Below are positions 1,026-43,043 of a stretch of 64,000 bases of DNA, in pieces. The notes below the pieces were generated by a model that saw only the letters and a program-made list of their open reading frames with translations, was not told the origin of the DNA and did no database searches. Source of the stretch: a virus. The stretch lies in UHGV virus genome UHGV-0070660, one strand, 5' to 3'. The position numbers and the translations under genes were made by a program. Each line of letters begins with the position of its first letter. The stretch's first letter is position 1.

Positions 1026-1092
1026 GCAACAAATGACCGGTTGAGAAGTTACTTTGCATACCATTACCTCCTGACAACGTAGGAGGGAACTT

Positions 1093-10275: not shown

Positions 10276-10300
10276 CTAACAAGTGATTTGCATTATCCTG
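10276..10300 (+). promoter_or_regulatory. putative late promoter (AACAAGTGA box plus -10)
   Basis: TAACAAGTGATTTGCATTATCCT; box shared with three other sites upstream of late-type genes. Confidence 0.45.
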
Positions 10301-10386: not shown

Positions 10387-10944
10387 ATGAAGGGAAAAAC
10401 AGCCGCAGGAGGCGGTGCAATTTGCGCTATCGCGGTGATGATTACCATCGTGATGGGTAATGGCAATGTGCGAACCAACCAGGCGGGGCTTGAGCTGATT
10501 GGTAACGCTGAAGGTTGCCGACGTGATCCATACATGTGCCCGGCAGGGGTATGGACTGACGGGATCGGTAATACACACGGGGTAACGCCGGGTGTGCGAA
10601 AAACAGACCAGCAAATCGCCGCTGATTGGGAAAAGAATATCCTGATCGCTGAACGCTGTATTAATCAGCACTTCCGGGGCAAAGACATGCCCGATAATGC
10701 CTTCAGTGCAATGACAAGCGCGGCATTCAATATGGGATGCAATAGTTTACGGACCTACTACAGCAAAGCGCGAGGCATGCGAGTAGAAACGTCCATCCAC
10801 AAGTGGGCGCAGAAAGGGGAGTGGGTGAATATGTGTAACCATCTCCCTGATTTCGTGAACAGTAACGGCGTGCCCCTGCGAGGTTTAAAGATTCGCCGTG
10901 AAAAAGAACGCCAGCTTTGCCTGACGGGGCTGGTCAATGAATAA
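10387..10944 (+). CDS. lyz: SAR endolysin (T4-lysozyme-like)
   Basis: 185 aa from MKGKTAAGGGAICAIAVMITIV (signal-anchor-release segment), catalytic E...D/C...T region ELIGNAEGCRRDPYMCPAGVWTDGIGNTHG. Confidence 0.85.
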   Translation: MKGKTAAGGGAICAIAVMITIVMGNGNVRTNQAGLELIGNAEGCRRDPYMCPAGVWTDGIGNTHGVTPGVRKTDQQIAADWEKNILIAERCINQHFRGKDMPDNAFSAMTSAAFNMGCNSLRTYYSKARGMRVETSIHKWAQKGEWVNMCNHLPDFVNSNGVPLRGLKIRREKERQLCLTGLVNE

Positions 10945-11235: not shown

Positions 11236-13966
<2,731 letters not shown>

Positions 13967-13984
13967 TTAATTAGAATAATTCGC

Positions 13985-14021
13985 ATCGTGTTTGAACGGA
14001 ATTTAACACTAGTCACTTGTT
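13985..14021 (-). promoter_or_regulatory. putative late promoter for prt-pro
   Basis: minus strand AACAAGTGACTAGTG followed by TTAAAT -10-like hexamer, about 30 nt upstream of prt start. Confidence 0.45.
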
Positions 14022-14032
14022 AAGGATTACCA

Positions 14033-17000
14033 ATGAACAAGCTATCTATAGGGGTGTTTCGCTGTTCAAGTGTCAGCGAAATATTGAAATACATTAGGGC
14101 AATAACATCTCACCGAGCGCCGATTAGATACGGCGTGGAAAAGGTGGAAGGCAAAAGCTATGACCGACTACGCCGGGAGGCGAATCAGAAGGCGATAGAT
14201 TTGCTTAATTCGCTGGTGGACGGCGCGACACTGACAGATGAACAGCGCCAGATCCTGGCTGGGTACACCGGCGAAGGCGGCATTGGCGGGTCCGTCTCCG
14301 AATATTACACACCAAAGCCGATCGCTGAAGGTGTCTGGGAGATCATGAAGCTCTACGGCGCGGACGTAGGTAACACTCTGGAACCATCGGCGGGAACCGG
14401 CGTTTTTAATGAGACAAAACCGGTTGGTACGGTGATGACCGCGACTGAGATCAGCAGTGTTTCCGGTCGTATAAACCAGCTGTTGCACCCGGAAGACAGC
14501 GTACAGATTTCTCCGTTCGAACAACTGGCTGTAAGCACGCCTAACGATTCATTCGACCATGTTGTGGGTAACGTTCCGTTCGGTGGTCGTGATAACACAC
14601 GCAACATCGATAAGCCTTACGCAGAAGAAACGGACATGGGTTCTTACTTCATGCTCCGCATGCTGGACAAGATAAAGCCAGGCGGATTCATGTGCGTGAT
14701 TGTGCCGCCGTCCATTGTTTCAGGTTCAAACATGAAGCGGTTACGCCTGCGCCTATCACGGAAAGCTGAATTTCTTGGTGCCCACCGCTTGCCTACCGGT
14801 ACTTTTGACGCTAACGGGACCAGTACGGTCGTAGATGTGGTGCTGATGCGCAAACATCCGGCAGAGATGGCTGAGAAAATCCCCCTGGTGGATGAAAGCA
14901 CTCTCGAATCGGCAAATGTGCTTTGGTCAACGTTTATTTCTGGCAAGTGGTTTGAAAAGGATGGCCGCCGGTTTGTTCATGGCACCCAGGAAAAGGGCTT
15001 CCAGGGGCGTATTGAGGTTCGTGCCGACGGTCAGATTGATAACCAGGCTCTTAAAGCGAAGCTGATTCATCGTTTCGAAAGCCGTATCGACTGGTCTTTG
15101 CTCGATATGGCTGAACCGTCACCGACCGCAGACGTTGTTGGTGAAGGGGAAATGCGCCTGATTAATGGCGTATGGCAAAAATATGCTGGTGGTCGCTGGA
15201 TTGAAGCTGATGCAGGGAAGGAACTTAAGATCGATGCTGCCAGTTATGGCGCGGATAGCTGGGAGGCTCTTCAGCGTAACCTGACTACAACAGAAGGCCG
15301 TCTCGGCATGACATTTACCCAGATGGCAAATGTCCGCGATAAGTACACCACATCAATCAGCGACGATATGGTGCAGCTGGTGGACTGGATTAACAGCCAG
15401 CCTGAAAAATACCGTGAACGCTTGTATCGCGGGGCGATGATTGGCCGGATGTTAATTGAATATCAGGACATGAAGGCCGCCGGGCATAGTGCTGAACAAA
15501 TCGAACAGCAGCGCCTTTCTCTGGTATCCCGTTTGCAGGCAGAGATTGACCGTTTTGGTAACCCCGGTCGCGGTCCGATAGCGAAATTATCGGGGAGCGG
15601 TGCGCGCGCCTGGTTTGCTTTCCGTGGTGCAATTAAGCTGGATGGCACTATTTCTGACGAGCTGACAGGAAAACTGGTTACGCATGATTCCAGCGCCAGT
15701 TATGACTCCACCAGCTATCAGGACACCCTGCGTTATCTCTACAGTGATCTCACTCGCGATCCAATCCAGCTCGATGATTTCCGCCTTGCGTTTACCGGCG
15801 AACTGCCAGCCAGTGATGAAGAGTTGCTTAATTTATTGGCCAGCACCCCTGGTATTGCGGTTTCACCGTATGGCGGGATTGTTCCGTTCGCCCGCGCCAC
15901 CAGCGGCGACATTAACGAGATAGTGGCTCCAAAACAGGAATTCCTCGCCACGCTCCCCGACGGTCCAGTAAAGAACAACGTCCTTAATCAGCTGGCAGCG
16001 ATCGAAGAGAAGCGCATCAAGACGCCAGCAGAGAATATCCGGTTTAAGCTCAATAGCCGTTGGTTCGACCGTTCCGTCATTCTGGAATTTTTGCAGGAAG
16101 ACGGCTATCCGGATCTGCGCTATGTGCAGTCAGTGCAGCTTGAAGGCGACGAAATGGTTTCTGACACCTATCACGGTGGTGATGGTCTGTTCGTCGGGCA
16201 CCGATACGGTGTCGTCCAGCGCAAGGATAAAGAAACAGGCGAGATCCGCTACGAGTGGGACCGTAAATCAGGTGAAAACGCGACCGGGTTCCCGGCACAG
16301 CTGGAAAAGTATCTCAATGGTGCGCGTATCGGTGGCAAAGATAGCGCGACGGCGAACGGCTACCGCGAGCAGATGGCACTGCTTGAGGACCAGTTCAATA
16401 AGTGGATCAAGACGCACGATCGCTACGATGAGCTGGTTGCCAAATACAACGATGTTTTCAATAGCAATATCCCGTATGAACACTCTGGCGATCCGCTTGG
16501 GTTGAAGGGATTAAGCGGTAAGCGACAGCCATTTGATTACCAGAATAGCGAGGTGCGCCGACTGTCCGAAGATGGGCGCGGCATCCTGGGCTTCGGTACC
16601 GGGCTGGGTAAAACCACGACCGCGCTGGCGCTTGAGGCGTTCAACTATGAGAACGGTCGTTCCACCCGTACTGCGTATGTAGTGCCTAAATCAGTGCTGG
16701 AAAACTGGTATTACGAAGCAAAAGAGTTTCTGAGTGAAGAGGCATTCAGTAACTACCTGTTCGTCGGTCTTGATGTGCTGATGGATGGCGATCAGATTCG
16801 CCAGGTGCCGGTGCTCGATGAGAACGGTAAACCTGTCGTTGGTGCAGATGGCACTCCCGTTATGCGCGATGCCCTTAAGCTGGCAGATGAAGCCACTATC
16901 ACGGCGCGGATGAACGCGATCCCGCACTCAAACTACCGTGCAGTCGTGTTTACCAAAGAACAATACGCCCGCATTCCGCTACGTGATGACACCGTAGATG

Positions 17001-20000
17001 AGCATGCACAAGACATGCTTTATGACTTCGTTGCTGCCGGGCGTGTGGCCAGCGCAATGGACTCCGATTCCCATCGCAAAGAGGCGGCGCGTCGCCGGGT
17101 ATTGTCGGAGTATTCAGATACCGGTACCGAAAAAGCAGAGAAGTATCCGTACTTTGAGGATATGGGCTTCGACAGCGTGATTGCTGACGAAGGCCACAAC
17201 TACCGCAATAGCTATAAAAATGGTCGCGAAGCGTCACAGCTGGCCTATCTGCCCACCAGCGCGGTGGCGCAATCGGCGCGAGATATGGCAATCAAAAACG
17301 CGTACCTGATGAAAAAGAATGGTGGGCGTGGACCGGTTCTCCTGACTGCAACGCCAGTCGTTAACACCCCGATCGATGCATACAACATGCTTTCTCATGT
17401 TCTGCCGAAGGAATACTGGCAGAAGATGGGGATCTACGGTCCTGATGACTTCGTTAAATTCTTCGGCAAGACCAGGCTGGAAACGGTACAGAAAATCAGC
17501 GGTGAAGTTGAAGAAAAAATGGCGCTGGTGGGCTTTGAAAACCTTGATGCGCTGCGCGGCATATTCCATCGCTGGACAACGCTTAAAACGGCGGAAGACG
17601 TTAAGGATACCGTGGAGATCCCGGAACTGGACGAACACCAGCAGGATGCACCACTTACTGAAGAACAACTGGCGGCGTATGAAGAATTGCGTCAACAGGC
17701 GGAAGCGGCAGCAAAAGCCAACAATGGCGTAACGACCTCGGTTAATGAAGACGGCGTGATTGAGCACGAGAAAGCCCGTCCGATCTTCTCAATAATCAGG
17801 GATATGGACCGCGTATGTACTGACATGGACCTGTACTATCGCCGGATCACCTATCGTTTCCTGCCGGAGTACGCCGATGCGGTGCAGCAGCTGGCGGACA
17901 GTTTGCCTAAACAAGCCACCAGCGAAGACGACGACAGTGATGATTCAATCACGCAGCAATCGCAATACTCCCTGATAGATAAGGGCGAGTTTATTCAGTT
18001 GCAGGTTCCGGAAGCGTTCGAGCAGGAAGTGAATAAGCGCCTGGCCAAGTTTGGCATTGACGAACAGACCGTAACTCACCCCGTTACGCCCAAATACGTG
18101 AAGCTGATCGCCACGCTGAAGGAGTTTTTCCCGGAAGGTAAGCAAATCATCTTCACGGACGAAAAAACGCAGCACCAGAAGCTCAAGCGCATTATCTGCA
18201 ATGCTCTTAACCTTGAACCTTCAAAGGTGGGGATCCTGAATGCTCAGACGGTTGCCGAGGCAGGTAAAACCGGTAAGAAACTGAAAGCGGTTAAACCGCC
18301 GAAAGAGTTACCGGATGAACCAACAGATGCACAGATAGCGAAATACAACGAGCAAATGGCTCTGTATGACGCCTATATCGCGCAGCAGAATGAAATGTCG
18401 TTGGGCGGTCTGGAAAAGATTGCAGCCGACTTCCAGGAGGGCCGGACTCCGATCATCATCTGCAACAAAAAGGCAGAGGTGGGTATCAACCTGCATCGAG
18501 GAACGACTGACATCCATCATCTGACGTTGCCATGGACACCAGCCAGTATCGCACAGCGTAACGGTCGCGGTGCCCGAGTTGGCTCCAACCGTGCAAGCGT
18601 TCGCGTTCACTACTACTGCGGCAAGGGTTCTTTCGATGAATACCGACTGAAGACGCTGAAGCGTAAAGCAGGCTGGATCTCCGATATCCTCCGTTCAGAT
18701 AAGTCAGAAATGGAGAACGCCGACGCCAACGATATGATCGAAATGCAGATGTATACCGCTAAGGATGATGGCGAACGTCTGGCAATGATGCAGGTTCAAA
18801 TGGATAAGGCGAAAGCCGCGCAACGCGCTCGCCAGAAAGAACAGGCTACTATCGACCTTCAGAACTACATCAAGGCGCAGCACGCAGCTGGCGAGGATGT
18901 GGAGGTACTTACCGCTGAATTAGAGCGAAGCAAAGCGGAACTTGAAAAGACCACCGCCGAGGTAGCTAAATTCAAACAGGCGGTAATGGCCAAAGCAGCT
19001 GATAACGCAGACTGGAAAGCCCGCTGGGGTAGCGTCCATCACACAGACCGTACGTTGTTAGCACAGTATCGCGCGTCGTTGAAAAGCGCCATTCAGCGCA
19101 AGGCTAATATCTCTCAAGCCATCTCCCGCTATGAGAAATTATTGAACCGTACTCAGAAGGCCGCGACGGATATCAAACGCCTGCGCCCGCTGGTGGAGGA
19201 TGCAATAAATAAAGGCATTCTGGATGTTGATCCTGACCTGGTTAACCATGCGAGTGAGTTCCTTGTTATCGGCGATCGCTCATGGCGTGTAGGCCAATAC
19301 TACGATTGTGCCGGTGATATCGTTCGCATTAAGTCGCTGGACTTCGACAGCCAGCGCGCAGACGTGGAGATTATCTTTACCTTCAAAGGTACCAAATCGG
19401 GTAACTGGGATGTGAAGACGCTGGATAAACAGGTTGATGTAACTCCCGATGAAGATGCTGTTATGCAGAAAATCAGTGGTGGCGTCTCCATCGCCGGGAT
19501 TAACGACATCATTTCCTGTGACGATTTCTACCGTTTCCAGCAGCGCGGCATGATCAAAATCACTGACTCATACGGCGTTCAGACTACAGAGTCAGGCTAT
19601 AGCATCGATTTTGTTGGTACCTATTCGGACCCACTGAAGCATGCGGTTTACCCGGATCGCCGTGACGGCGCGCTGAAGTCGTCAATTGCAAAATGGGTGC
19701 TTGGTATGATGTCGGAAGGGAATAACCGCCAGATCCGTTCGGCAGAAACATTCCTGGTTGAACTGTTTGGCTCCAATTATGGCGATGTAATCGCGTCATA
19801 CGGAGATACGCTATCCCCTGAAGCAATTCAGGAGAAAATAGCGGATGCGATCGCCAGAATGCCGGAAAAAACAAGCCAGGGGGCTACTCGTAACGGGGAT
19901 TCTGAACTTGAAGTCACCAATGCCATTTTCGGTACCAATGAGTTCCGGGCGTCAGATTATGAGATCACCACAGCACAGTTTGGCACCATTGGCATTTACA

Positions 20001-20833: not shown

Positions 20834-21274
20834 ATGGCCACACTATCTGATACAATAAAACCGAATAAAACATATCTTGAGGCGGTACTCCGTACAGCGT
20901 TGTTAGGAAAGACAGAAGACGAATACGTTGATTTCTTCCTGTCAGGGCTACGCGGGCGATTACTGAAAAATCCCCGCCTGTACCGCAGCTATGGCCCATA
21001 CTGGCCGGAAATTAAAAAATTATTACTGGAGCGCGGTTATGGTAATTTCGGTCGTCTCGTTGACCGTGACGTTCGCAAAATTTACCGTTATGACCGCCCG
21101 GCGCTGACGCTCATAGCTGCGACGCTCTACAGCCAGGAGCGTTTTGATAATGGTCAGATATACTCAGCCTGGCATTTACTGCCAGTGCCTGAAGAGGTTG
21201 ACGACCAGGACTATGAGTTTGAGTCTTACGATTTGGAAGTTGAAGCCTTGGCACAGGCTGGAGAGAAAACTTGA
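20834..21274 (+). CDS. ulx: Ulx (upstream of lxc)
   Basis: 146 aa, position between darB and lxc. Confidence 0.45.
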   Translation: MATLSDTIKPNKTYLEAVLRTALLGKTEDEYVDFFLSGLRGRLLKNPRLYRSYGPYWPEIKKLLLERGYGNFGRLVDRDVRKIYRYDRPALTLIAATLYSQERFDNGQIYSAWHLLPVPEEVDDQDYEFESYDLEVEALAQAGEKT

Positions 21275-21519
21275 AGAAGCGATACTACACAGTAAAGCAT
21301 GGGACGCTACGAGCATTGCAAGAGTTTGCTGATAAGCATAACGTTGAGGTGCGCAGGGAAGGGGGAAGTAAAGCTCTGCGCATGTACCGTCCTGACGGAA
21401 AATGGCGGACGGTCGTCGATTTCAAAACTAACAGTGTTCCCCAGGGCGTCCGCGACCGGGCATTCGAAGAATGGGAGCAGATCATCATAGATAACGCATT
21501 GCTTCTGAACGCTGATTAA
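21271..21519 (+). CDS. lxc: Lxc/Bof modulator of C1 repression
   Basis: 82 aa, 4-nt overlap with ulx; size and position match P1 lxc. Confidence 0.55.
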   Translation: MKKRYYTVKHGTLRALQEFADKHNVEVRREGGSKALRMYRPDGKWRTVVDFKTNSVPQGVRDRAFEEWEQIIIDNALLLNAD

Positions 21520-21571
21520 TAATCATTTAAAGCCCATATGATATGGGCTTAAACAACAGGATCGATATACA

Positions 21572-22612
21572 GTGTTAGTTAAATATATAGGCGAGAGTTA
21601 TATGGAAAAACCTTGGCCGGGCATGCACATTAGAACATCTTGTCTGGAGGATGGTTTCTTTAGAGCAACGCAACCAAAGTATCTTAATGATCCGTCGAGT
21701 GAGTCGCGACTTCTTCCATTTTTTAATAAATTTTCACCAGCCGATTACGCATGGGCTAGAAATGAATTTAAGAAAATGCAACGAGATCCATCTTATGTCC
21801 CATCTATACAAGAGTTAGAGTATTATTTAAAACCTTGCGGGAAACGATACGGAGAGGATTTTCCACACTTGTTAATCAATGAAGGTTTTACCTCAATGGA
21901 TTCATATGATGAATCTAAACTCCAAGAAATAGTAACGTACCTTAACGATTATTTAGTAGAAGCCGTAAGCTGTCATCTTGGTGTATTCTCTCTATCAAAA
22001 AGTGATTGCAATCTACACATGTGGACTCATTATGCATCGATAGGAAAGGGGTTTGCTGTAGTTTTCGATGAAACACACGATTTTTTTAAAATATATCGGC
22101 CGTGTGATGTTAGTTATAATCCAGAAGATAGAGCATCTGTAACCTATTATAAAGGCGCTGTGCGATTTAATGGCTATCCTGCGCCATCGAGGAATATAGA
22201 TATAAAGAATAAAGATAATACATTGCATGGGATCTTAAATCGAGATCCAGTTCGCGAGCTTTTTATTAATAGGCTTCTTTATACAAAAGGTGAAGAGTGG
22301 CTTCCTGAAAATGAAAGTAGAATTATTTTTCCATTGGCTGATTGCGAGAGAAAAATAGGAAGCATTGTCTCTCCATCGATTGATGATTGCCTATTGAATG
22401 AGTATCCTGATGTTTTTCATGACTATCATGAAATTAACTTAAAGAAAATTCCTTTTTCTGCATTCAAGCAAATTACCTTAGGGTATAACATGACTGAAAA
22501 AGATAAAAATATAATTTTAGATAAAGTTAGTTCGAATAAAGAATTGTCTCACGTCAACGTATTACAATCAAAACTTGATATATACGGAAAGGTTGTGGTT
22601 AAGCCCATGTAA
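21572..22612 (+). CDS. DUF2971-like protein, AT-rich cargo gene
   Basis: 346 aa (GTG start; first ATG at 21602); motif GVFSLSKSDCNLHMWTHYASIGKGFAVVFDE resembles DUF2971 signature; markedly AT-rich versus backbone. Confidence 0.5.
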   Translation: MLVKYIGESYMEKPWPGMHIRTSCLEDGFFRATQPKYLNDPSSESRLLPFFNKFSPADYAWARNEFKKMQRDPSYVPSIQELEYYLKPCGKRYGEDFPHLLINEGFTSMDSYDESKLQEIVTYLNDYLVEAVSCHLGVFSLSKSDCNLHMWTHYASIGKGFAVVFDETHDFFKIYRPCDVSYNPEDRASVTYYKGAVRFNGYPAPSRNIDIKNKDNTLHGILNRDPVRELFINRLLYTKGEEWLPENESRIIFPLADCERKIGSIVSPSIDDCLLNEYPDVFHDYHEINLKKIPFSAFKQITLGYNMTEKDKNIILDKVSSNKELSHVNVLQSKLDIYGKVVVKPM

Positions 22613-22709
22613 TAATACGCTTATGTCTACACTTCATGATAAATACCTTCCTTAACTTAGGAAGGTTAGTTGTGGGTTTACGCAGAAAGTAACAAATAAC
22701 CTTCGTAGG

Positions 22710-23351
22710 TTATAGAATATTATTCTTTCCGGTGAGTATTCCTTGAGGAACTCTAGCGCATCCCATAATTTGAGTTTTCTTGATGATGTTTATATATGAC
22801 GCTATCAGCGATGAGTCATCACGACTATCCACTTCAGAAGCCATTGCCCTGATGTACTCGGCGCTGGCAACGTTGTTGTATTCCGTCGCAAAGCAACATA
22901 GTAACGTCAGAACATGCTCTGTCGTTATTTCGCTCCAGTTGATGTTGAAAAATTCATCGCCTTTTTTATCGTGTTCGGAATCGAAGATGCTTTGGTGGAG
23001 GATGTATTTGCCGGATTCCTTGCGCGGTAACTTGATCGCTTTCTGGCGTTCCAGCTCCTTGTAAATCTGCATTGCTTCAATCAGTACCGGCCTGCCGTTC
23101 ATGAAGGGATCGCGCAACCTTACACGCTGGCCAACTCGACCAGTAATAAAGCTGTTTTCCTCTTCCACCAGCACGATAAAACCCTTTTCCTCTTTTTCTC
23201 GCAATTCGCGCAGCAGCTGGAGTTCCATATCGCGGCGGCGTTCAGGGTAGCTGGTCCGCTCAGCCATTATCAGCTCGTTATTGATCCATGCAGCAGTCAT
23301 TGACGCCGGTTTGCCGACGCTCATCGAAACAACGCATATTTTCTTATCCAT
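22710..23351 (-). CDS. hypothetical protein, possibly Mat by position
   Basis: 213 aa from ATG 23351 with GGGGG RBS (track ORF extends to 23498); backbone-like GC. Confidence 0.4.
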   Translation of the reverse strand: MDKKICVVSMSVGKPASMTAAWINNELIMAERTSYPERRRDMELQLLRELREKEEKGFIVLVEEENSFITGRVGQRVRLRDPFMNGRPVLIEAMQIYKELERQKAIKLPRKESGKYILHQSIFDSEHDKKGDEFFNINWSEITTEHVLTLLCCFATEYNNVASAEYIRAMASEVDSRDDSSLIASYINIIKKTQIMGCARVPQGILTGKNNIL

Positions 23352-23482
23352 AGCGCCCCCTACAAAAAAGAAAAGCCACCAGCGGCGGCTTAGCAATACA
23401 ACTGAAGGTAGCGCCCGGTACTCAGACTGTGCCGTCCATGGAATATTTGAAAAGGGATCCATCCGTACCGGGCGTGTGATGA

Positions 23483-23515
23483 TTCTGACTGAAGTCACTT
23501 GTCAGTTGTCAATCA
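23483..23515 (-). promoter_or_regulatory. putative late promoter-like element
   Basis: minus strand GACAAGTGACTTCAG box related to boxes at 10278, 14007 and 49014. Confidence 0.3.
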
Positions 23516-23801: not shown

Positions 23802-24820
23802 ATAGCAGGCAATGCAGGGGAGAGCGCCAATGCAGATTTATCCAGATCCTTCAGCGAGCGGAGCCGTTTTTTCTGCCCAATCTTTCTGGCGTCACGGATG
23901 ATAACGGCCAGCATGGCGTCCAGAACGTCCAATGCATCATCCAGCGCCAGCGTTTCCCATGCAAGGACAAAGGCAACCAGAACCGCCATCCTTTTCTGCG
24001 GTGACATCCTGGCAATATTGAACACCGAAGTCATACCAGCATAACGTGCGAGATTTTTCAGGCGCACAGCCGGGAGTGTACTCAGGTTTTCAGCATGCAG
24101 GCCAAAATCGTTCAGAGTTTTCCAGCGTTCAATTGCTTCATTAAACGCCGGACCACTGATGGTCACAGGGCCCTTTTTCAGTGATTCCAGTAAAGACAGG
24201 CGGCTGCAATCAGTTGGCCCCAGCAGCATCTCCAGCTGTGAACGCTGTTCGGCTGACGGTATCAGTGCCAGTTTGTTCCACAGGCGCAACGTCGCCTTTT
24301 CCCTTACCTCTGAAATCAACCGGGTCAGCGTAGTGGCTCCGGGGAGAATAATACGATGTTGCATAAGCCACCCTGTCGCCAGATCGAAAAGCAGGCCAGG
24401 ACGTTCGTTGCTTATCCAGCTCCGGGTATATAAAAGACGGGTAAGGCGAAATGTCCAGGGCCAGGCAAATTCACGATACTGATAGTGCTGACGTATCAGC
24501 GCTGCATGCTCACGGCGGGTATTTTCCCTCTGACCGTATTCTGCAAGAACGGTGATATCACGAATCCCGAGCTGTCTGGCGGTAAAATGCCGGACGCCGG
24601 AAGGAATATGATTCATATCGGTGAGGAAGGTGCCCAGAAAACGGACACATCCAATTTGCAGGGCAATGCCCAGACGGTTGTGATCACCTCTGCTTTTTCC
24701 GATAAATTCCTTGTCTGCTTCATCAAGGTGAAAATATCGTGCCAGCTGAAGCTCATCCGGTTCACCGGTGAATCTGCCATAGCTTTCAGTCTGCTCAGTG
24801 GTCAGAAAGTCAACGGGCAT
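23789..24820 (-). pseudogene. tnpA: Tn3 transposase TnpA, N-terminal about 337 aa only
   Basis: begins MPVDFLTTEQTESYGRFTGEPDELQLARYFHLDEADKEF; Tn3 TnpA is about 1000 aa, frame ends after short junction-encoded tail. Confidence 0.85.
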
Positions 24821-25541
<721 letters not shown>

Positions 25542-25653
25542 TACGCCTATTTTTATAGGTTAATGTCATGATAATAATGGTTTCTTAGACGTCAGGTGGC
25601 ACTTTTCGGGGAAATGTGCGCGGAACCCCTATTTGTTTATTTTTCTAAATACA

Positions 25654-25681
25654 TTCAAATATGTATCCGCTCATGAGACAA
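25654..25681 (+). promoter_or_regulatory. bla P3-type promoter
   Basis: TTCAAA -35 and GACAAT -10 in TTCAAATATGTATCCGCTCATGAGACAAT. Confidence 0.7.
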
Positions 25682-25711
25682 TAACCCTGGTAAATGCTTC
25701 AATAATATTGA

Positions 25712-26584
<873 letters not shown>

Positions 26585-26693
26585 CTGTCAGACCAAGTTT
26601 ACTCATATATACTTTAGATTGATTTAAAACTTCATTTTTAATTTAAAAGGATCTAGGTGAAGATCCTTTTTGATAATCTCATGACCAAAATCC

Positions 26694-26731
26694 CTTAACG
26701 TGAGTTTTCGTTCCACTGAGCGTCAGACCCC
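26694..26731. repeat. Tn3 38-bp terminal inverted repeat (right end)
   Basis: CTTAACGTGAGTTTTCGTTCCACTGAGCGTCAGACCCC. Confidence 0.9.
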
Positions 26732-30201: not shown

Positions 30202-31686
30202 TTATTCATTAAGCCATGCCAGAGCTTCATCAACCTGCGCTTCGTCTTCGACGCTAAGCACTTCATCCTGGGGAACATAGTTCGCCAACATAGCGAAACA
30301 ATATGTATCCCAATGGTCCGGTGAGTGCAGGTTGAGTTTTTTCTTCATATCTTCCTTTGACATCACCTTCCATTGACCTGCGGAATTTATCCCTACCGGT
30401 ATCTTTGATGCTTCCTCTATAGTCGCAGCCCCCTTATCAAGCCTCATACGCCCTGATTTTACAGCTTCTGCCGCCTGAATATTCGCGAAAGCGCGCATAT
30501 CGAAATAAAGGCTTTTATCTTCACGGCTGTGCATCTTTTTACCCCAGCGGATACGCTGGACGGTAATGCCATAGCGTTCGTACATTAGATCAGCCGTCGA
30601 TTTCCCCAAGCCATCGCCATCAATAGCTATGGTTATGTTCGGGAACCGTTCTGGGTTACATTCTGCGAAAATCTTGGCGGCTAACTGCGTTTCTGTAACG
30701 TCTGTGTATTCCAGCATACGATAGTTGATTACACGGCGTTTATTTCGCTGGCCGGACACCATCATGATATTAATAACGGACTTATCTCGTCCTGTGCCAC
30801 CAGCAACGTCAACACATGCAACCCAGCCCCATCCTTTGGCAATCTTGACCTTTCGCCGCGTCGCCCGCTCAACCTCATCACGACCAAGAAGAAAGCCATC
30901 TTGAGATTTGGGAAATTCACCACGTACTTTGATCATGTACATGGGGTTATCACGACCGCCATACTCCGCAAGTTTTGCTCGTATAAATTTTGCATCTACA
31001 AGCGGAGATTCTTCACTATTCAGTATTATCGCAGTAAACAATCCATCAGGATTTCCCGGGCGAATAGCTAGTCTGTGGTGTGAATCGTAGAAATAGCCTG
31101 AAGGTCGCGTAGGCTGGGAAAGAAGCAGAATACGGTTATCCTTACCGGTCAGCGCACCTGTTATCACACTGAATGCTTTATCACTCACACCCGACGCTTC
31201 GTCGATGATATACAAGAGATGATCGGCGTGTTCACCAGCCAACGCCTCCTCATTCCCGGGGCGACAGGACTTTATCAATATTGTCCAAACACCCTTGCCA
31301 GTCACCTCAAAAAAAGACGTTTCTGTAAGAATGAAATACTTTGACAACCACGGGAATCTGCTAACAGCAGTAGCCCAATTGCTCTTTATGTATTTGAAAA
31401 TACCATCAAGGACTTGCTGTCTTTTGTTAGCGACCAGAATGACGCGAGCGCCGGGGAAAAACATGATGAAGAGTATTGCAATGATACTCGTCATATCCGA
31501 TTTACCAGTACCATGGCCGGAGGTCACACTTGTCCAACTGCCGTCCTGCTGCGTGGACTCAATGATCTCATCCTGCTGCCAGGTTGGTGTCTTCCCAAAC
31601 AACACATCAGCGGCCGCAATCCAGTCATAACGATATAGCGCCACAAGCTCGCGCCAACGTGGGTCCGTTACGCAACTTCTGGCCAT
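30202..31686 (-). CDS. pacB: terminase large subunit PacB
   Basis: 494 aa, Walker A GHGTGKS, overlaps pacA stop. Confidence 0.8.
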
Positions 31687-36199: not shown

Positions 36200-36231
36200 A
36201 AGAAACCTCCAGGAGTTAGTGGATCAGGCAC

Positions 36232-36582
36232 ATGCACAATAACGTTCTCAATGTTAGCCGTTCAATTCAGACAATCAGAGACTGCACCAGTGTGGTGGCA
36301 TCAATCCCATTGCGGAACAGCATAGACGAACTGCAAATTCGTGTATTGAATCCGAATCAGGCTAATAAGCAATTGCGCTTTATTTTGACGCTGAAAAGTG
36401 AAACAGAGGGGATAAAGCACAGCGTAAAAGTGTTTTCTGAGGCCATTCTGCTTAATGGGAAGCTCCGGCATCTGGTAAGGCCAGAACGTCAATATCCTGA
36501 CGTCCTGGCGCGTGAAAAAGACCTTCTTTCTGAAGTTCAGGATAGGGTGATCGATTTCGTCAAATGCTATCCCCTGCATTGA
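36232..36582 (+). CDS. hypothetical protein
   Basis: 116-aa ORF on opposite strand to neighbours. Confidence 0.3.
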   Translation: MHNNVLNVSRSIQTIRDCTSVVASIPLRNSIDELQIRVLNPNQANKQLRFILTLKSETEGIKHSVKVFSEAILLNGKLRHLVRPERQYPDVLAREKDLLSEVQDRVIDFVKCYPLH

Positions 36583-36833
36583 GGGCAGGTGTTCCCTTCC
36601 GCAAAGTAGGGAAAATTGCTATCAAGTTCATCACACCATCTGCGTTGGTCGTAGCACCAAAACGCCTCCCACGGTGCACGGAAATACTTCATCCACCAGG
36701 ACACTCGATCAGGTATATCTGCTGGTGGCAGTTCTTCTGGCAATAATTTGCCTGATAATTCCCTTTCCGCCCGCGACAGCATTTTTTGAGGCTCGCGTTC
36801 TCTTTTTCAAGCTCATCTACGCGCACCTGTAAT

Positions 36834-37772
36834 TCAGCTTTCGTTGGCATGGTCCACCTCATGCTTTTCAGCCACCAGCGGCAATAAAGCCCTGGCCATC
36901 TTATGAACCAATAGTGCATCAATAATGCCAAGCGTATGCCCCGGCTTAATGTTTAATGCCGCCTCAAGGTGACACCTTTCCAGGTCACTTTTCTCGGCTT
37001 GTTTATGATGATCTGGTGTAATAACGTCGCCCAAAACACGGCTAATTCTTTCTCGTAATTGCTGGGTGCCAGCACACTTGATCGCTGTATCGTGGAGACG
37101 GTTAACCAGTTCGCGATAAACATGCGGCTTAATGCGGATACGTTCACCGGTGACGCCCTTTCCTGGCGCTGGCACCGAACTATCCGGAATATCCGGATAG
37201 TTGCCAGCCTCGTAAGCTACCCACAGCCAGTGCATGAATGTTTCAGTGGACACACAACCACAGTCCACATCGATTTTCCCGCGTTGCTGTTCCAGCCATT
37301 GCCCAAAATCCAACCTGTAAGTCTTACTTTCAAGTTCATCACCATTGAACTCGACTTTCTGCGACGCTATGAGAGCTGATTCGTATTGTTCGCGAGTGAC
37401 AACTGACTGGTATTCATCGCTATCAAGGCCACCAATTGGAAGCTCAATCTCACAACAAAAATTGCGCCCAAAGAAAGTGTCTTTTTTGTGGTCTGAGCCA
37501 AAAGCAAAAGTCGCGCATGGTGCCATTAAATTGACACTGGGTAGGTAACAATAACTCATTCCATCAGGCCACCCGCCGCACTTAGGCAGCTCCTTCACTA
37601 ACAAGTCGATAAGCTTCATTTTTTTATCATCTTTGCAAGCCGCCAAAGCCATTTGGGCAAGTGCCAATACTTCATCTGCCGTATATCCAGCACCGTGACC
37701 ATACATTTCGATACGGGAAATAATCTCTGATATACGCTCTTCAGTGATTCTGGTCATTTCTTTTTGCGCCAT
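36834..37772 (-). CDS. hypothetical protein
   Basis: 312-aa ORF. Confidence 0.45.
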   Translation of the reverse strand: MAQKEMTRITEERISEIISRIEMYGHGAGYTADEVLALAQMALAACKDDKKMKLIDLLVKELPKCGGWPDGMSYCYLPSVNLMAPCATFAFGSDHKKDTFFGRNFCCEIELPIGGLDSDEYQSVVTREQYESALIASQKVEFNGDELESKTYRLDFGQWLEQQRGKIDVDCGCVSTETFMHWLWVAYEAGNYPDIPDSSVPAPGKGVTGERIRIKPHVYRELVNRLHDTAIKCAGTQQLRERISRVLGDVITPDHHKQAEKSDLERCHLEAALNIKPGHTLGIIDALLVHKMARALLPLVAEKHEVDHANES

Positions 37773-38128
37773 TTCTTTTCACATTCCTTAGTCCATTTTT
37801 CAATGTTCATTTTGGCAATATCAGTCATTCCATCACCTAAGAAATACTTTTTCCGGTACGTCTTGCACTTAAACCACACTACAACAGCCACCAGCCAGAA
37901 AATAAAAGGCCATACGGCAATACCAACTCCAGCCGCGATAAAGCCCAATATCCATAAATGAAGCTCTCCAACTTCTGTTTCCGGCAATATTCTTAAAGAA
38001 TTAAACAGCAGGCTGAACGAATGGTCGTATGCATTGGCAGTATAAGACATGCAATCCATATAATTAAAGTCATAGCCTGCGGCTGCCGCCCATAATGGGC
38101 GGTCAAGAAAATGTTTTAGTGTCATCAT
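37754..38128 (-). CDS. membrane protein with Lys-rich C-terminus, AT-rich
   Basis: 124 aa, TM region LWILGFIAAGVGIAVWPFIFWLVAVVVWF, C-terminal KKWRKKK. Confidence 0.45.
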   Translation of the reverse strand: MMTLKHFLDRPLWAAAAGYDFNYMDCMSYTANAYDHSFSLLFNSLRILPETEVGELHLWILGFIAAGVGIAVWPFIFWLVAVVVWFKCKTYRKKYFLGDGMTDIAKMNIEKWTKECEKKWRKKK

Positions 38129-38134
38129 ATTAAT

Positions 38135-38428
38135 TTAAGGTTCAGACCAGTTATCTTCAATAGCAATGCTTAATCTTTGTAGCCATTCTGCTAATTTCAG
38201 CATTGCTTCTCTTTCGCTTAAACCACACGGAAAATCATCAAGCGATATTGTTGGCTTGAAGTTTCCCAAATTATCCATTTCAACGGTCAGATTTTGCTCC
38301 AGAACGGTATTTCTTACGCGGCTATTGTGCCGAAGCAAATATACTGAACGTGATTTATTGGTTTTGTGGTCGAACGTATATTCGGTAAGTATCATCTGAC
38401 TTCCGCCATGATTATTACCGCGCCACAT
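38135..38428 (-). CDS. small hypothetical protein, AT-rich
   Basis: 97 aa, GGAG RBS, 6-nt gap to downstream membrane gene. Confidence 0.45.
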   Translation of the reverse strand: MWRGNNHGGSQMILTEYTFDHKTNKSRSVYLLRHNSRVRNTVLEQNLTVEMDNLGNFKPTISLDDFPCGLSEREAMLKLAEWLQRLSIAIEDNWSEP

Positions 38429-38451
38429 AATTACTCCGTGTTAATTGAAAT

Positions 38452-38754
38452 TTAGCTATTAATCTTCACTTTTATCGCGAACACCTTTACCGGTTTATCA
38501 CCGAAGTGTGGATGTGTGATTGTTTTTATTTCATATCCGTTATACGGGACGTCAATTCTGCGACTGAAGTCTTCGCGCTTCGGATATCCCTTTGTGATAA
38601 TCAGGCGGTAATACTTACGGTTAACGAGGCGCTTATTCCAGTAGTCATTACACAGGCGATACTCTTCCGTTTTCTCCCCGCGAATCATGGCATCGAAGTA
38701 TTCACCTTTAACGGCAAGTTGCAGGTTAGCCATTACCTCACCTCCAGTCTCCAT
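38452..38754 (-). CDS. ASCH-like small protein
   Basis: about 100 aa, GEKTEEYR motif resembling ASCH GxKTxExR. Confidence 0.35.
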   Translation of the reverse strand: METGGEVMANLQLAVKGEYFDAMIRGEKTEEYRLCNDYWNKRLVNRKYYRLIITKGYPKREDFSRRIDVPYNGYEIKTITHPHFGDKPVKVFAIKVKINS

Positions 38755-38996
38755 ACCGCCTGACCAATCCGGCTGGCATGGGTATCTTTGGATACTGTTC
38801 CGTCTTTAGCCAGCTCCATAAGAATTTTGCGCAAATCTGCCGAACGCCATTCTTCATCAGGAAATTCCTTCTCCATTGCCAACCGCAGATTCCAGGTTGC
38901 CATCCTGAATGGATATTCCCCGCCGAGAGCTTTATCTTGCAGGGCAGCCCGGGAACGCATCACCTGCAAAACCTTCTCTTTTACATCCATCATTTC
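38733..38996 (-). CDS. hypothetical protein
   Basis: start set at internal ATG 38996 to give 4-7 nt overlap with upstream gene. Confidence 0.35.
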   Translation of the reverse strand, partial: EMMDVKEKVLQVMRSRAALQDKALGGEYPFRMATWNLRLAMEKEFPDEEWRSADLRKILMELAKDGTVSKDTHASRIGQAVWRLEVR

Positions 38997-39847
38997 GCCT
39001 CCTGCGGCGGTTCTGGTAGCGGCATCCAGAACAAGGCGTTCCCTAACCACGATAAAGTGCCGTCGCTCAACTCCACGTATTCCCCTTGTACCTGTCCTGC
39101 CATATACTCGCCGTGCTTTGAATAAATTAAAATCCAATCATCTTGAGGGGGCATTCGCTCACTACAGCTTATCCAACCATCCGGAGTTACCGGAGAGTTG
39201 CCTGCCAGTCTACGCAAAACAGCCTTAACAGCCTCAATACGGTCATCATCGTAACTTTCCGCCGTATCTATGCGGTCGAGCATGATGATTGCGTTATCAA
39301 TATCAGGATTGCCGGTCCACTCATTACCGCGATTGGATTCGGCAGCCTGGTTGCCGCGTACTGGTTGATTGTCGGCTTTACCCAGTCTGTCGTCGCTGCA
39401 TGAATGCCCTTCCAGCCAGGCCAATGCTTGTCGCATGAAATACGCAATATGTTTGCCGTGGTAATCGTCTTCATCGATGTGAAAAGCGATACTACGAATG
39501 TATTCAATTGCGTTTTCAATGGCCTCTAACGCTATCGGCGCTGGCGGAGTGGTATATAGTTTTCGACATTTGTATATCCAACCGGCATGGTCAGGCGTGT
39601 CTGTAAAACGCAAATCGTCTTCGTAGCACTCACGACTACGTTCTTTCCATTCCGTCCACGGAACACCGCTATTCCAGGTGGGGCGAGTGCAGGACTGATA
39701 CAGAACAGGTTCTGCTTCCAGCGATGCCAGCACGATACGCGCCAGTTCTTCCGCTTCTTCTGCTGGCAGTACAACGTTGCTATCAGGTCCGTATGTTTCG
39801 CGCCACTGCTTGATTGTCAGCAGTCGCTCTTTGGTAATAGTGATCAT
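38990..39847 (-). CDS. DUF551-domain protein
   Basis: 285 aa, C-terminal WISCSERMPP...WMPLPEPP typical of DUF551. Confidence 0.55.
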   Translation of the reverse strand: MITITKERLLTIKQWRETYGPDSNVVLPAEEAEELARIVLASLEAEPVLYQSCTRPTWNSGVPWTEWKERSRECYEDDLRFTDTPDHAGWIYKCRKLYTTPPAPIALEAIENAIEYIRSIAFHIDEDDYHGKHIAYFMRQALAWLEGHSCSDDRLGKADNQPVRGNQAAESNRGNEWTGNPDIDNAIIMLDRIDTAESYDDDRIEAVKAVLRRLAGNSPVTPDGWISCSERMPPQDDWILIYSKHGEYMAGQVQGEYVELSDGTLSWLGNALFWMPLPEPPQEAK

Positions 39848-40359
39848 GCCGCGTTTCCTTCTTTCTTATTAACAATTACACCGTCATATATTTCATTAAG
39901 GTGCCCTCTCAACTCCATGCGCCTTAATGCAGATAACATGTAATCGCATTCAACCTGCTTATTCCCAATAAAAGGTTTATCTTCAGGGTTACCCCAACAG
40001 CAATTACCCTTGGGCCACCCATGTACTTTCCGTACTCTTCCGTTAACAACGTGAAGTAATCCCCAGCCAGGTGGTAAATCCTCAATTGAAATAATTCCCG
40101 GCTCACTAATAAAGAATCGCCAGTCGCCCATTCCAAGAGACGGATTTTTACGAAAACGCTTTTTTCTATCTGCCAACAAATCAGCACGAGAACACTTCGC
40201 CTCTATCAGGCATGATGCTGAATTTCTGAACCCCATAGCATCTGGCTGTTCTCCGGTACTGGTTACAGCTATAAAGCGGTCATGAAAACAAACCTTGAAC
40301 CCGTTGCGCTTAAGGAACTTGTACGCAATCTGACAGAGTTCGCGGTGTGTTAACGCCAT
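39844..40359 (-). CDS. hypothetical protein with possible PD-(D/E)xK nuclease motif
   Basis: 171 aa from ATG 40359 with AAGGAGAG RBS; GEQPD...EAK motif. Confidence 0.4.
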   Translation of the reverse strand: MALTHRELCQIAYKFLKRNGFKVCFHDRFIAVTSTGEQPDAMGFRNSASCLIEAKCSRADLLADRKKRFRKNPSLGMGDWRFFISEPGIISIEDLPPGWGLLHVVNGRVRKVHGWPKGNCCWGNPEDKPFIGNKQVECDYMLSALRRMELRGHLNEIYDGVIVNKKEGNAA

Positions 40360-40360
40360 A

Positions 40361-40549
40361 TCACTCTCCTTTAGTGCGCAAATGGTTTTTCCAGCGGTTT
40401 TGCGCCGCGCTGGGCTTTTTGCAAAAACCACAATCCATCATCCCGTAATATTTCATCAACCCCATCCGTCGGTTGCTGAGTCTCACCCACTGCCAGACGC
40501 CAGGAGCGTTTCTACGAACTAACAGAATCTTTGCTTTACGGTTTTTCAT
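40361..40549 (-). CDS. small basic protein, paralog 1 (MKNRKAK start)
   Basis: 62 aa, stop abuts downstream gene start. Confidence 0.4.
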   Translation of the reverse strand: MKNRKAKILLVRRNAPGVWQWVRLSNRRMGLMKYYGMMDCGFCKKPSAAQNRWKNHLRTKGE

Positions 40550-40561
40550 CTTACTGCGTAC

Positions 40562-40732
40562 CCTTTCTTCCGCCTGTTCTGTGACGCAGTAGGCTTACGC
40601 TTTGCGGCAAAAGCCACCTGACCAAATGGATGGAGTACCGCTATCTTATGGTTGCTAATAACCAGCTCCACCACACGCACAGGTCGCTGTAAAAAAAGTC
40701 GTTTTGCCTTACGGTTTTTCATCGCTTTGCTC
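40562..40732 (-). CDS. small basic protein, paralog 2 (MKNRKAK start)
   Basis: hand-translated 56-aa ORF not in track; shares 15-nt start region TTACGGTTTTTCATC with paralog 1. Confidence 0.35.
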
Positions 40733-40986
40733 TCCTGCGTCTCTTTGCTGCTCGTCGTGCCGCTGCAATACCGGTATGGCGGCGCTTTGGTGCTGGGGTG
40801 ATGTTGTCAGCCATCAGGACCTGTGGCTTTGCAATTAGCGCAGAAGCCCAAAAACGAGTCGGGTACGGTAACAAGCCAATACATGCCACACGCACTACTC
40901 ACCTCCGTTGATGCGAATGCCTGTTGCAATGCTGTTTATGATGCTGTCAGTGCATGGGGTAGAAAGCTGGGCATCTCCAGCAATTT

Positions 40987-41250
40987 TCATGACATCAACA
41001 TCTGCATATCGAATACCGAGGTGTTTAGCCATGCGTCATTGCAATTCACTGCGTAGGTTCTGATGCTGATGCTCTCCCGCCCCTGACAGACGCCAGGCCA
41101 GTCAATAAAGTATCCGCAATGCCTACCCTCAGACGTGCGCGCAGGATAAATGCCGTTATGACCCGGCAAAATATATGCTACCCATTCATCTTGCGTTGCC
41201 TTTTCTGCCGCCTCACGCAGTACCTGATAGTCAATTGTCATTCTCGCCAT
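40987..41250 (-). CDS. hypothetical protein
   Basis: 87-aa ORF. Confidence 0.35.
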   Translation of the reverse strand: MARMTIDYQVLREAAEKATQDEWVAYILPGHNGIYPARTSEGRHCGYFIDWPGVCQGRESISIRTYAVNCNDAWLNTSVFDMQMLMS

Positions 41251-41882
41251 CCTTCACAGTTGTAATCACTACAGCCTTCAAAATCATATGGGCTGTACTG
41301 CCAGGTTATTTTTCCGCAATGCGGACAATTCCAACGCACCTTCCCGCTTCGCGACTTCTTTCTTCTGTTTTGCTTTTTCAACCAGTCAGGCATGACCAAA
41401 CCTGCGCCCTGAACCATTGTTCTGCGGTTAAAGTTATTGATATTGAACGTCCGGCGCTTTGCTGCATCAGCAATGGAAAATGGCAACCAAACTATTCCTG
41501 GTTCGTTTTTGTTGGCGACGCTAAAGATGGTCGCTTTACTGAAGTCATCTGTTGGCAATCCACCGTGTTGAAGCCAGTAAACATCGTTGCCGTTCCAGCT
41601 ACCTTTTTTGTAGGCCACATACGCAGTGCAATCTGACTCAATCAGGCTTTCTGTAGGGATGTACTGGCAATCAACGTGCCACACAGCCATTGCATCCACG
41701 CTATCAGCGCAAACAGGCTGATCGATATCTCGACCACAATTCCAGGCTTTTTGGGCTTCTTCCAGCGTGTAAACATGAGCGCGATCGATATCAGAACTGT
41801 AACCATTGCCGTTATGGCAATGGAATGAGGCGTTATTACCCACAGTTTCACGCAAGCACATCATGTAAAAACGGTTACTCAC
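41238..41882 (-). CDS. hypothetical Cys-rich protein
   Basis: 214 aa, C-terminal CPHCG...CxxYNCEG cluster. Confidence 0.45.
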   Translation of the reverse strand: MSNRFYMMCLRETVGNNASFHCHNGNGYSSDIDRAHVYTLEEAQKAWNCGRDIDQPVCADSVDAMAVWHVDCQYIPTESLIESDCTAYVAYKKGSWNGNDVYWLQHGGLPTDDFSKATIFSVANKNEPGIVWLPFSIADAAKRRTFNINNFNRRTMVQGAGLVMPDWLKKQNRRKKSRSGKVRWNCPHCGKITWQYSPYDFEGCSDYNCEGWRE

Positions 41883-42090
41883 TGGATGCCTCCCAGCAAA
41901 TTTGTCTTATATAAGAACTGTTAACGCGCTTTACTTTCCCGTCGAACTCCAGTTTCTTTAGACGACGCAAAACGTATGCCGTTTTGAGTGTGCGATATTT
42001 ATCCCTAAGCCAGTTGGTCACGACGTAAGTCATACAGCGCCCGTGTTCTTCCAACACCCGAACTATTTCTTCGTCGGTTGGCTTGCTCAT
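41875..42090 (-). CDS. hypothetical protein
   Basis: 71-aa ORF in operon context. Confidence 0.35.
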   Translation of the reverse strand: MSKPTDEEIVRVLEEHGRCMTYVVTNWLRDKYRTLKTAYVLRRLKKLEFDGKVKRVNSSYIRQICWEASSE

Positions 42091-42308
42091 TTTGTCGCTC
42101 CTTCAGCTTTCTCTACTTTCGCTGCCATGATTTCCAGCTTTTGTGCTGCCGATGCCGCTAACCTGTGAAATTCTTCATCTGTTTCAACTGGAATTGGTAC
42201 AAACCTGACACCAATTTGAGCAAGGCTATGCGCCATTTCGAGACTTGCTCTTAACTCTGCTGGGGATGCTTTATTCAGGCCGACTTCCTCACAAATAACT
42301 GATTGCAT
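42087..42308 (-). CDS. hypothetical protein
   Basis: 73-aa ORF. Confidence 0.35.
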   Translation of the reverse strand: MQSVICEEVGLNKASPAELRASLEMAHSLAQIGVRFVPIPVETDEEFHRLAASAAQKLEIMAAKVEKAEGATK

Positions 42309-42317
42309 ACGCTCGCC

Positions 42318-43043
42318 CTACTGAATACGCTCAAACTCGATTACCCAAACCCAGGGATTAGCACTCCAGCTTTCTTCGCCGTAGATGGATTCCCACAGGC
42401 GCTGGAACGCAACCTTGGCCATTGCGAAATCCCCCTTGGGAGTAAGGAATGTTCCCGGGTGATCAGGAAGCAAACTTCCAGCAGGCGGAATGCCCTCATC
42501 CCTTGCATCGCATTCGCTGATATCGTTCAACCGCTCAACGCGCACGTTGGTAATTTCCAACAGGATGCGTGATGCCCATCGCGGCATGTGAATTGATGGA
42601 CGCCACCCACCATCAAACTTTTCATTCACTGTGTGAGGTTTCCAGTCGGCATCATCTGGTATCGACCATAAACCGTAATCACCAGGCTTTTGCTCACAAC
42701 TGGCCCGATAAATCCTTGCTGCGTTCTTCTCATCGCCACGACAAAGGTTGTCGTTCCAGTCCACACTGCAACCATCTTCATTGCCTAATATCGCCCATGT
42801 TTCACGAACCCAAATTCGATCGCCGACGATACCAAAGGGGCAATTGAAAACACTGCTTACACCATCAGCCCCGTACCACTGAAAACCTGCACCAATTTTT
42901 CTAACCATCACTGGTGCTTCTGGACCAACTTCCGCAGGCTGATTTTTCATTATCCGCCGCGTCTGCGTTTTCCTTCCTTCGAGGATGGCCCGGACCATCT
43001 CATCGTTGAAAATCATGCCGCGCTCTTTCACTTCGCCTTTCAT
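42318..43043 (-). CDS. ASCH-domain protein
   Basis: 241 aa, ILEGRKTQTRR and HMPRWASRILLEITNVRVERLNDI motifs. Confidence 0.5.
   Translation of the reverse strand: MKGEVKERGMIFNDEMVRAILEGRKTQTRRIMKNQPAEVGPEAPVMVRKIGAGFQWYGADGVSSVFNCPFGIVGDRIWVRETWAILGNEDGCSVDWNDNLCRGDEKNAARIYRASCEQKPGDYGLWSIPDDADWKPHTVNEKFDGGWRPSIHMPRWASRILLEITNVRVERLNDISECDARDEGIPPAGSLLPDHPGTFLTPKGDFAMAKVAFQRLWESIYGEESWSANPWVWVIEFERIQ

Follow-up and report, generated by a model that had tools for sequence, protein, structure and literature searches.

A recurrent box upstream of late operons in a P1-like phage-plasmid as the very probable -22 element of Lpa-dependent late promoters

Introduction

Is the short box that recurs upstream of late-type genes in a P1-like virus genome a regulatory element, and if so, is it the activator site of the phage P1 late promoters? 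The question is raised by positions 13,985-14,021 of a 64,000-nucleotide stretch of the virus genome UHGV-0070660, the whole of which is called the window here. According to the original prediction, which was derived from the letters alone, a conserved box followed by a -10-like hexamer fits the architecture of the P1 late promoters that depend on the activator Lpa.

PMC10695390 describes 11 late promoters from which the host RNA polymerase transcribes the P1 late genes and in which a conserved 9-bp inverted repeat is the site bound by Lpa. In PMC3152322, Lpa is reported to bind a conserved sequence centred at -22 and to require the host co-activator SspA; the same source places the binding of the Mu activator C at -30 to -55. 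SspA is presented in PMC1891329, citing Hansen et al. 2003, as RNA-polymerase-associated and apparently without late-promoter DNA binding, Lpa being thought to act through it. The late-promoter consensus used in the present work follows the GenBank annotation and secondary citations.

Results and Discussion

Relationship to Phage P1

The kinship of the window with P1 is readily apparent from BLAST comparisons. The 2-kb stretch round the flagged site is 98-99% identical to phages P1, JL22, P7, RCS47 and SJ46, and the whole window aligns with the P1 reference AF234172 as its reverse complement, from P1 ~32275 down via 1/94800 to ~63878. The identity amounts to 95-99% across most of the aligned range, with a few segments replaced. 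Judged by its sequence, the window is a P1-like phage (Punavirus), a phage-plasmid.

Among the replaced segments, a 2.9-kb Tn3 segment at 23819-26731, 100% identical to part of the Tn3 of phage P7, takes the place of P1 coordinates ~1879-2347, with loss of the 5' part of ref and of its promoters/operator. The features under this P7 match are tnp, tnr and the TEM beta-lactamase gene bla; the phage-plasmid therefore appears to carry blaTEM. At 21519-22839, between lxc and mat, ~1.3 kb of different DNA is found, and the EcoPI res-mod region of P1 (with IS5) is missing. The ~6 kb at 36200-42348 have no homology to the P1 reference and replace its upfM-upfO/LPhot region. This DNA is common to P1-like phages (MH422554, RCS47) and to lambdoid/Stx phages, the genes shared with the latter being Eaa, DUF551, ASCH and recombination-repair genes.

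The Site Upstream of prt

On the minus strand, the flagged site reads cttaAC AAGTGACTA gtgt TAAATT ccgttc. Comparison with the P1 late promoters bears the prediction out: the whole promoter is base-for-base identical to AF234172 17251-17269, annotated there as 'late promoter LPpro' (Table 1). Over a 119-bp context, the identity to P1 is 98.3%, with zero changes in box, spacer and -10. The 9 bp of the box form a near-palindrome (type AAGTnACTT) with matches in three of its four arm pairs, and LPpro is the best match in the window to the weight matrix (PWM) described below (26.5 bits). Every feature of a P1 Lpa-dependent late promoter that can be checked on a sequence is found in LPpro. Very probably, its box is the Lpa-binding element of the prt/pro late promoter, and LPpro the promoter of the portal/head-processing operon prt-pro.

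Table 1. Late promoters, candidate sites and associated genes in the window (box, spacer and -10 hexamer separated by spaces; distances in nucleotides)
Feature	Sequence or product	Position in window	Strand	Relation to AF234172	Context
LPdar	AAGTTACTT tgca TACCAT	1046-1064	+	100% identical to P1 LPdar, 31212-31230	28 nt upstream of lydA (GTG at 1093); heads the lydA-lydB-hdf-darA operon
LPlyz	AAGTGATTT gcat TATCCT	10281-10299	+	homologous to P1 LPlyz, 20969-20987	upstream of lyz (ATG at 10387)
prt	portal protein, 569 aa, TTG start at 13957	12248-13957	-		predicted first gene driven by LPpro; start codon 42 nt after the LPpro -10
LPpro -10 hexamer	TAAATT	14005-14000	-	minus_10_signal of LPpro	
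LPpro spacer	gtgt, 4 nt		-		between box and -10
LPpro -22 box	AAGTGACTA	14018-14010	-	identical to '-22 region of LPpro', 17251-17259	
AC dinucleotide	AC	14019-14020	-	outside the annotated 9-mer	directly 5' of the LPpro box
LPmat	AAGTGACTT cagt CAGAAT	23500-23482	-	100% identical to P1 LPmat, 2678-2696	upstream of mat (ATG at 23462)
LPpac	ATGTGACTT tcgt TACCCT	32933-32915	-	100% identical to P1 LPpac, 90475-90493	upstream of pacA (GTG at 32879), directly downstream of lpa
lpa	late-promoter activator, 150 aa, intact	33417-32965	-	100% identical to P1 Lpa	
LPpmgL	TAGTCATTT gttg ATTATT	49025-49007	-	annotated as LPpmgL in P1, 78495-78513	upstream of pmgL (TTG at 48918)
LP26	AAATGACTA gcgg TAGAAT	49017-49035	+	homologous to P1 LP26, 78485-78503	upstream of the 26-25-7-24-6-5 baseplate/tail operon (gene 26 ATG at 49065)
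Candidate in gene 7	caAC AAGTGACTG gtga TAACCT	50722-50740 (with flank 50718-50740)	+	no promoter annotation	PWM match; 49 nt after the gene 7 ATG at 50673
Candidate before upfC	ccAC AAATAACCT aagt TAAAAT	62764-62782 (with flank 62760-62782)	+	AAATAATCT at this position in P1, 14.1 bits	PWM match; intergenic, co-oriented, 32 nt upstream of upfC (GTG at 62815)

LPpro sits in the 75-bp intergenic gap between prt and darB, a plus-strand gene with its ATG at 14033, and the box abuts the darB ribosome-binding site AAGGA (14022-14026). A sigma-70 promoter, PdarB, is predicted on the plus strand (-10 TAGAAT at ~13972-13977); it would fire the opposite way through LPpro, and from the coordinates the two appear to overlap physically (window 13947-14020). 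At their 5' ends the two transcripts would overlap by ~10 nt, and the leader of darB contains the Lpa box. With the two promoters opposed and the box so placed, the switching on of LPpro in the late phase could therefore disturb darB expression. A second -10 served by the same palindrome toward darB was considered and rejected; the hexamer at the right distance is AGGATT.

The Set of Late Promoters

The late promoters annotated in AF234172 number 11 (LPmat, LPpro, LPlyz, LPdar, LPs, LPsit, LP23, LP26, LPpmgL, LPhot and LPpac). Ten of them are laid out alike over 19 bp, with a 4-nt spacer between the 9-bp box and the 6-bp hexamer; in LPhot the spacer is 9 nt long. Seven of the 11 map into the window, which does not reach the stretch of P1 that holds LPs, LPsit and LP23. 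LPhot is missing because the DNA in front of the hot-like ORF has been replaced; no homolog of it is found in the window, and no box precedes this ORF. All seven window copies are intergenic, co-oriented with the following gene and located 19-88 nt upstream of its start codon. The genes that follow (lydA, lyz, prt, mat, pacA, gene 26 and pmgL) are intact and match their P1 counterparts in length. Over the 119-bp context, LPmat, LPdar and LPpac show no difference from P1; for LPlyz and LP26 the 19-bp promoter is identical and one base differs in the 119-bp context.

LPpmgL is the palindromic LP26 box read on the opposite strand, divergent from LP26. The palindrome allows a single copy of the box to work with two divergent -10 elements, as at LP26/LPpmgL. 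The LPpmgL -10 (49007-49012, minus strand) is ATTATT in the window and AATATT in P1. Among 77 P1-like contigs of IMG/VR, 29 carry the P1-type and 22 the window-type hexamer. Both forms are common, so that the constraint on this hexamer looks weak; and as the variation falls on a normally critical position, LPpmgL is less secure as a promoter.

The original prediction had placed the recurrent box at 10278, in the 14007 and 23494 regions and at 49014. These coordinates are right, the sites being LPlyz, LPpro, LPmat and LP26, and AF234172 annotates late promoters at all four, in keeping with the proposed combination of a -10 and an element near -22. The underlying 13-mer, AACAAGTGACTAG, occurs at 14009-14021 (minus strand) with 0 mismatches, and its relatives are found at 10278-10290 (plus strand, 2 mismatches), 49014-49026 (plus strand, 1 mismatch) and 23491-23503 (minus strand, 3 mismatches). 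A -10-like hexamer does follow the box, but not at the distance of 8-10 nt given for it: the -10 starts, in all of the sites, 3 nt after the 13-mer and 4 nt after the 9-bp core, and a value of ~9 nt is obtained only when counting from the box centre. Contrary to the statement that no copy precedes lydA, LPdar is located there; it was overlooked because its box, AAGTTACTT, differs from the 13-mer at five positions. LPdar, LPpac and LPpmgL were all absent from the earlier list. Overall, the interpretation is supported and the observation partly confirmed, with correction needed only for the spacing and the completeness of the list.

Promoter Architecture

We hold with high confidence that the late promoter consists of a 9-bp near-palindrome AAGT(G/T)ACT(T/A) preceded by AC, a 4-nt spacer and a sigma-70-type -10 of the form TAnnnT, with no -35. 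No usable -35 is present at 16-18 nt spacing in any of the seven window promoters.

It could be argued that these sites are ordinary constitutive sigma-70 promoters, in which the box is a conserved spacer without an activator, as a recognisable -10 hexamer is present at each site and LPmat shares its -10 with the predicted sigma-70 promoter Pmat, which it overlaps and which has a TTGACA -35 at 19-nt spacing. At the sites besides LPmat, however, no more than two of the six -35 positions match at 16-18 nt (two of six for LPpro itself), LPpro is not called by a sigma-70 consensus scan, and conservation is concentrated in the box and not at the -35 location. Moreover, dependence on Lpa and SspA is reported in PMC10695390, PMC1891329 and PMC3152322. 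Constitutive transcription from these sites is thus very unlikely.

It is similarly improbable that the box is an operator, bound by a repressor or another DNA-binding protein (C1, a late repressor) in place of an activator. Like many operators it is palindromic, and it lies inside the promoter core, the usual position of a repressor. The C1 operators, however, are annotated separately and have an unrelated sequence (of the ATTGCTCTAATAAATTT type), the box is found only at late operons needing positive control, and PMC10695390 and PMC3152322 assign it to Lpa.

Recurrence in the Window and in Diverged Relatives

Taken alone, the 13-mer is not enriched in the window at up to 3 mismatches (17 matches vs 13.6 expected), and the 9-mer box at up to 1 mismatch is barely so (44 vs 36). 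At up to 2 mismatches, the 13-mer gives 4 matches vs 0.92 expected, a count reached in 1 of 100 shuffles. When box, spacer and hexamer are combined, the outcome is different: the composite ACAWRTKAYT-N5-TANNNT yields 5 matches vs 0.06 expected (5 reached in 0/100 shuffles), and the 9-bp box at up to 1 mismatch with a 4-nt spacer and TANNNT yields 6 vs 0.4 (6 reached in 0/200 shuffles). A non-circular weight matrix was also trained on 3 P1 sites outside the window and 7 sites of Cronobacter phage JK004. Over ~128,000 positions, its top seven matches (18.9-26.5 bits) are six annotated promoters and one extra site, the expected number of matches at this score being 0.026.

Homologs of Lpa in the phage collection include those of JK004 (67% identity) and D6 (31%). 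A P1-trained matrix applied to JK004 (MZ188976) finds nine sites of at least 16.7 bits, each placed between two annotated genes and pointing toward the one that follows. Orthologs of the R, 23, 26, pacA, prt, lyz and pmgC/sit operons carry seven of the nine at their heads, the other two being additional. The JK004 prt site reads tcAC AAGTGACCA gtgt TAAATT, and that of a Pantoea element, whose Prt is 73% identical, reads tcAC AAGTAACCA gtga TAAATT; upstream of prt in both, box and -10 form a conserved island within diverging flanks. Equivalents of LP26 are present in four further diverged IMG/VR lineages. In phage D6, the ~5.4 kb round lpa carry no promoter features, and lpa overlaps pacA there.

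That the recurrence is a chance similarity of short, functionless A/T-rich intergenic sequences, as the near-background counts of the 13-mer at up to 3 mismatches and of the 9-mer might suggest, is refuted by the 15- to 80-fold enrichment of box, fixed spacer and -10, a count reached by no shuffle, and by the retention of the motif at orthologous positions in phages of ~70% DNA identity, and it sits poorly with the intergenic, late-gene-oriented placement of the annotated copies, so that next to no weight is left for it. In all likelihood, the recurrent box is the '-22 element' of the P1 Lpa-dependent late promoters, and nothing in the sequence contradicts this late-promoter explanation.

Extent of the Recognition Element

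The AC dinucleotide in front of the box is as conserved as the 9-bp box itself. In a compilation of 23 late-promoter sites (P1, JK004 and other lineages), which include orthologs and are not independent, A is found in 23/23 and C in 22/23; AC is present in 8 of the 9 compiled P1 sites of standard spacer, LPpmgL being left out. Box position 9 is weakly conserved (0.79 bit). Taking the two together, the information is asymmetric and ACAAGTGACT-like. The Lpa recognition element may accordingly be an asymmetric 11-bp ACAAGTGACT-like sequence and not a symmetric 9-bp repeat, and the AC flank belongs in motif searches for Lpa sites.

Candidate Additional Promoters

Two sites without a counterpart in the list of 11 emerge from the matrix search (Table 1). 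The candidate in gene 7 scores 22.6 bits with the out-of-window matrix, ranking 4 in the window, and its score is reached by 0.8% of shuffles. P1 has the identical sequence, as do 77 of the 78 P1-like contigs where the start of gene 7 could be located. A search of IMG/VR with the window gp7 gives 80 loci, which at 98-100% identity are uninformative on this site. In the four diverged lineages found by a scan with JK004 gp7, the AC flank, the core and TAnnnT are kept despite amino-acid changes; box positions 8-9 of these equivalents are CG, and their scores are low. A twelfth late promoter at this position is plausible but unproven; if real, it would start transcription of the distal tail genes 7-24-6-5 anew.

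The candidate before upfC is weaker than that in gene 7 (17.0 bits, reached by 8% of shuffles). The upfC-upfB-ppfA-mlp-upfA operon that follows has no promoter annotated in P1 (AF234172). Given the two candidates, the P1 late-promoter list may be incomplete. We nevertheless regard as somewhat doubtful, and put forward only tentatively, the joint proposal that, in P1 and its close relatives, one or two further Lpa-dependent late promoters exist besides the 11 annotated and that the Lpa element may be an asymmetric one of 11 bp.

Lpa and the Proposed Mechanism

The activator encoded in the window matches the Pfam family PF25716 BPP1_LPA with E = 3e-57, and no relative of it is found in the PDB. 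A single-sequence AlphaFold model is poor (pLDDT 51); only three N-terminal helices are predicted, an arrangement that would fit a helix-turn-helix.

In the scheme drawn from the P1 literature, sigma-70 RNA polymerase alone would be unable to use the -35-less late promoters. The early gene lpa would be C1-repressed in the lysogen. Once expressed, Lpa would bind the box in the spacer region and, together with RNA-polymerase-associated SspA, activate initiation. The operons for lysis, head, tail and packaging would thereby be turned on jointly. The dependence on Lpa and SspA, the binding of Lpa and the start sites are presumed to apply to the window, being carried over from the P1 literature and annotation by virtue of 98-100% identity.

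Conclusions

The late-promoter family described here is already known, and nothing new is added to P1 biology. An element recognised from sequence alone corresponds to a genuine, experimentally characterised regulatory element, and the map of seven promoters and lpa is applicable to this P1-like phage-plasmid.

The closest known system is P1 itself, which shares with the window the box, the spacer, the -10, the downstream genes and an identical lpa, and differs from it in the presence of LPhot and in the AATATT form of the LPpmgL -10. JK004 and other diverged P1-like plasmid prophages also have AC, the 9-bp box, the 4-nt spacer and TAnnnT at the heads of orthologous operons; their DNA is ~70% identical, the Lpa identity is 67% and box position 8 is often C, and the sites lack promoter annotation in their records.

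The C-dependent late promoters of Mu and those dependent on P2 Ogr/P4 Delta likewise use the host sigma-70 polymerase, have a poor or absent -35 and rely on a small phage activator. These systems are not known to be homologous to that of P1 Lpa. Activators of the Mu/P2/P4 type bind upstream, at ~-30 to -55, whereas P1 has its box within the spacer, at ~-22, and needs SspA.
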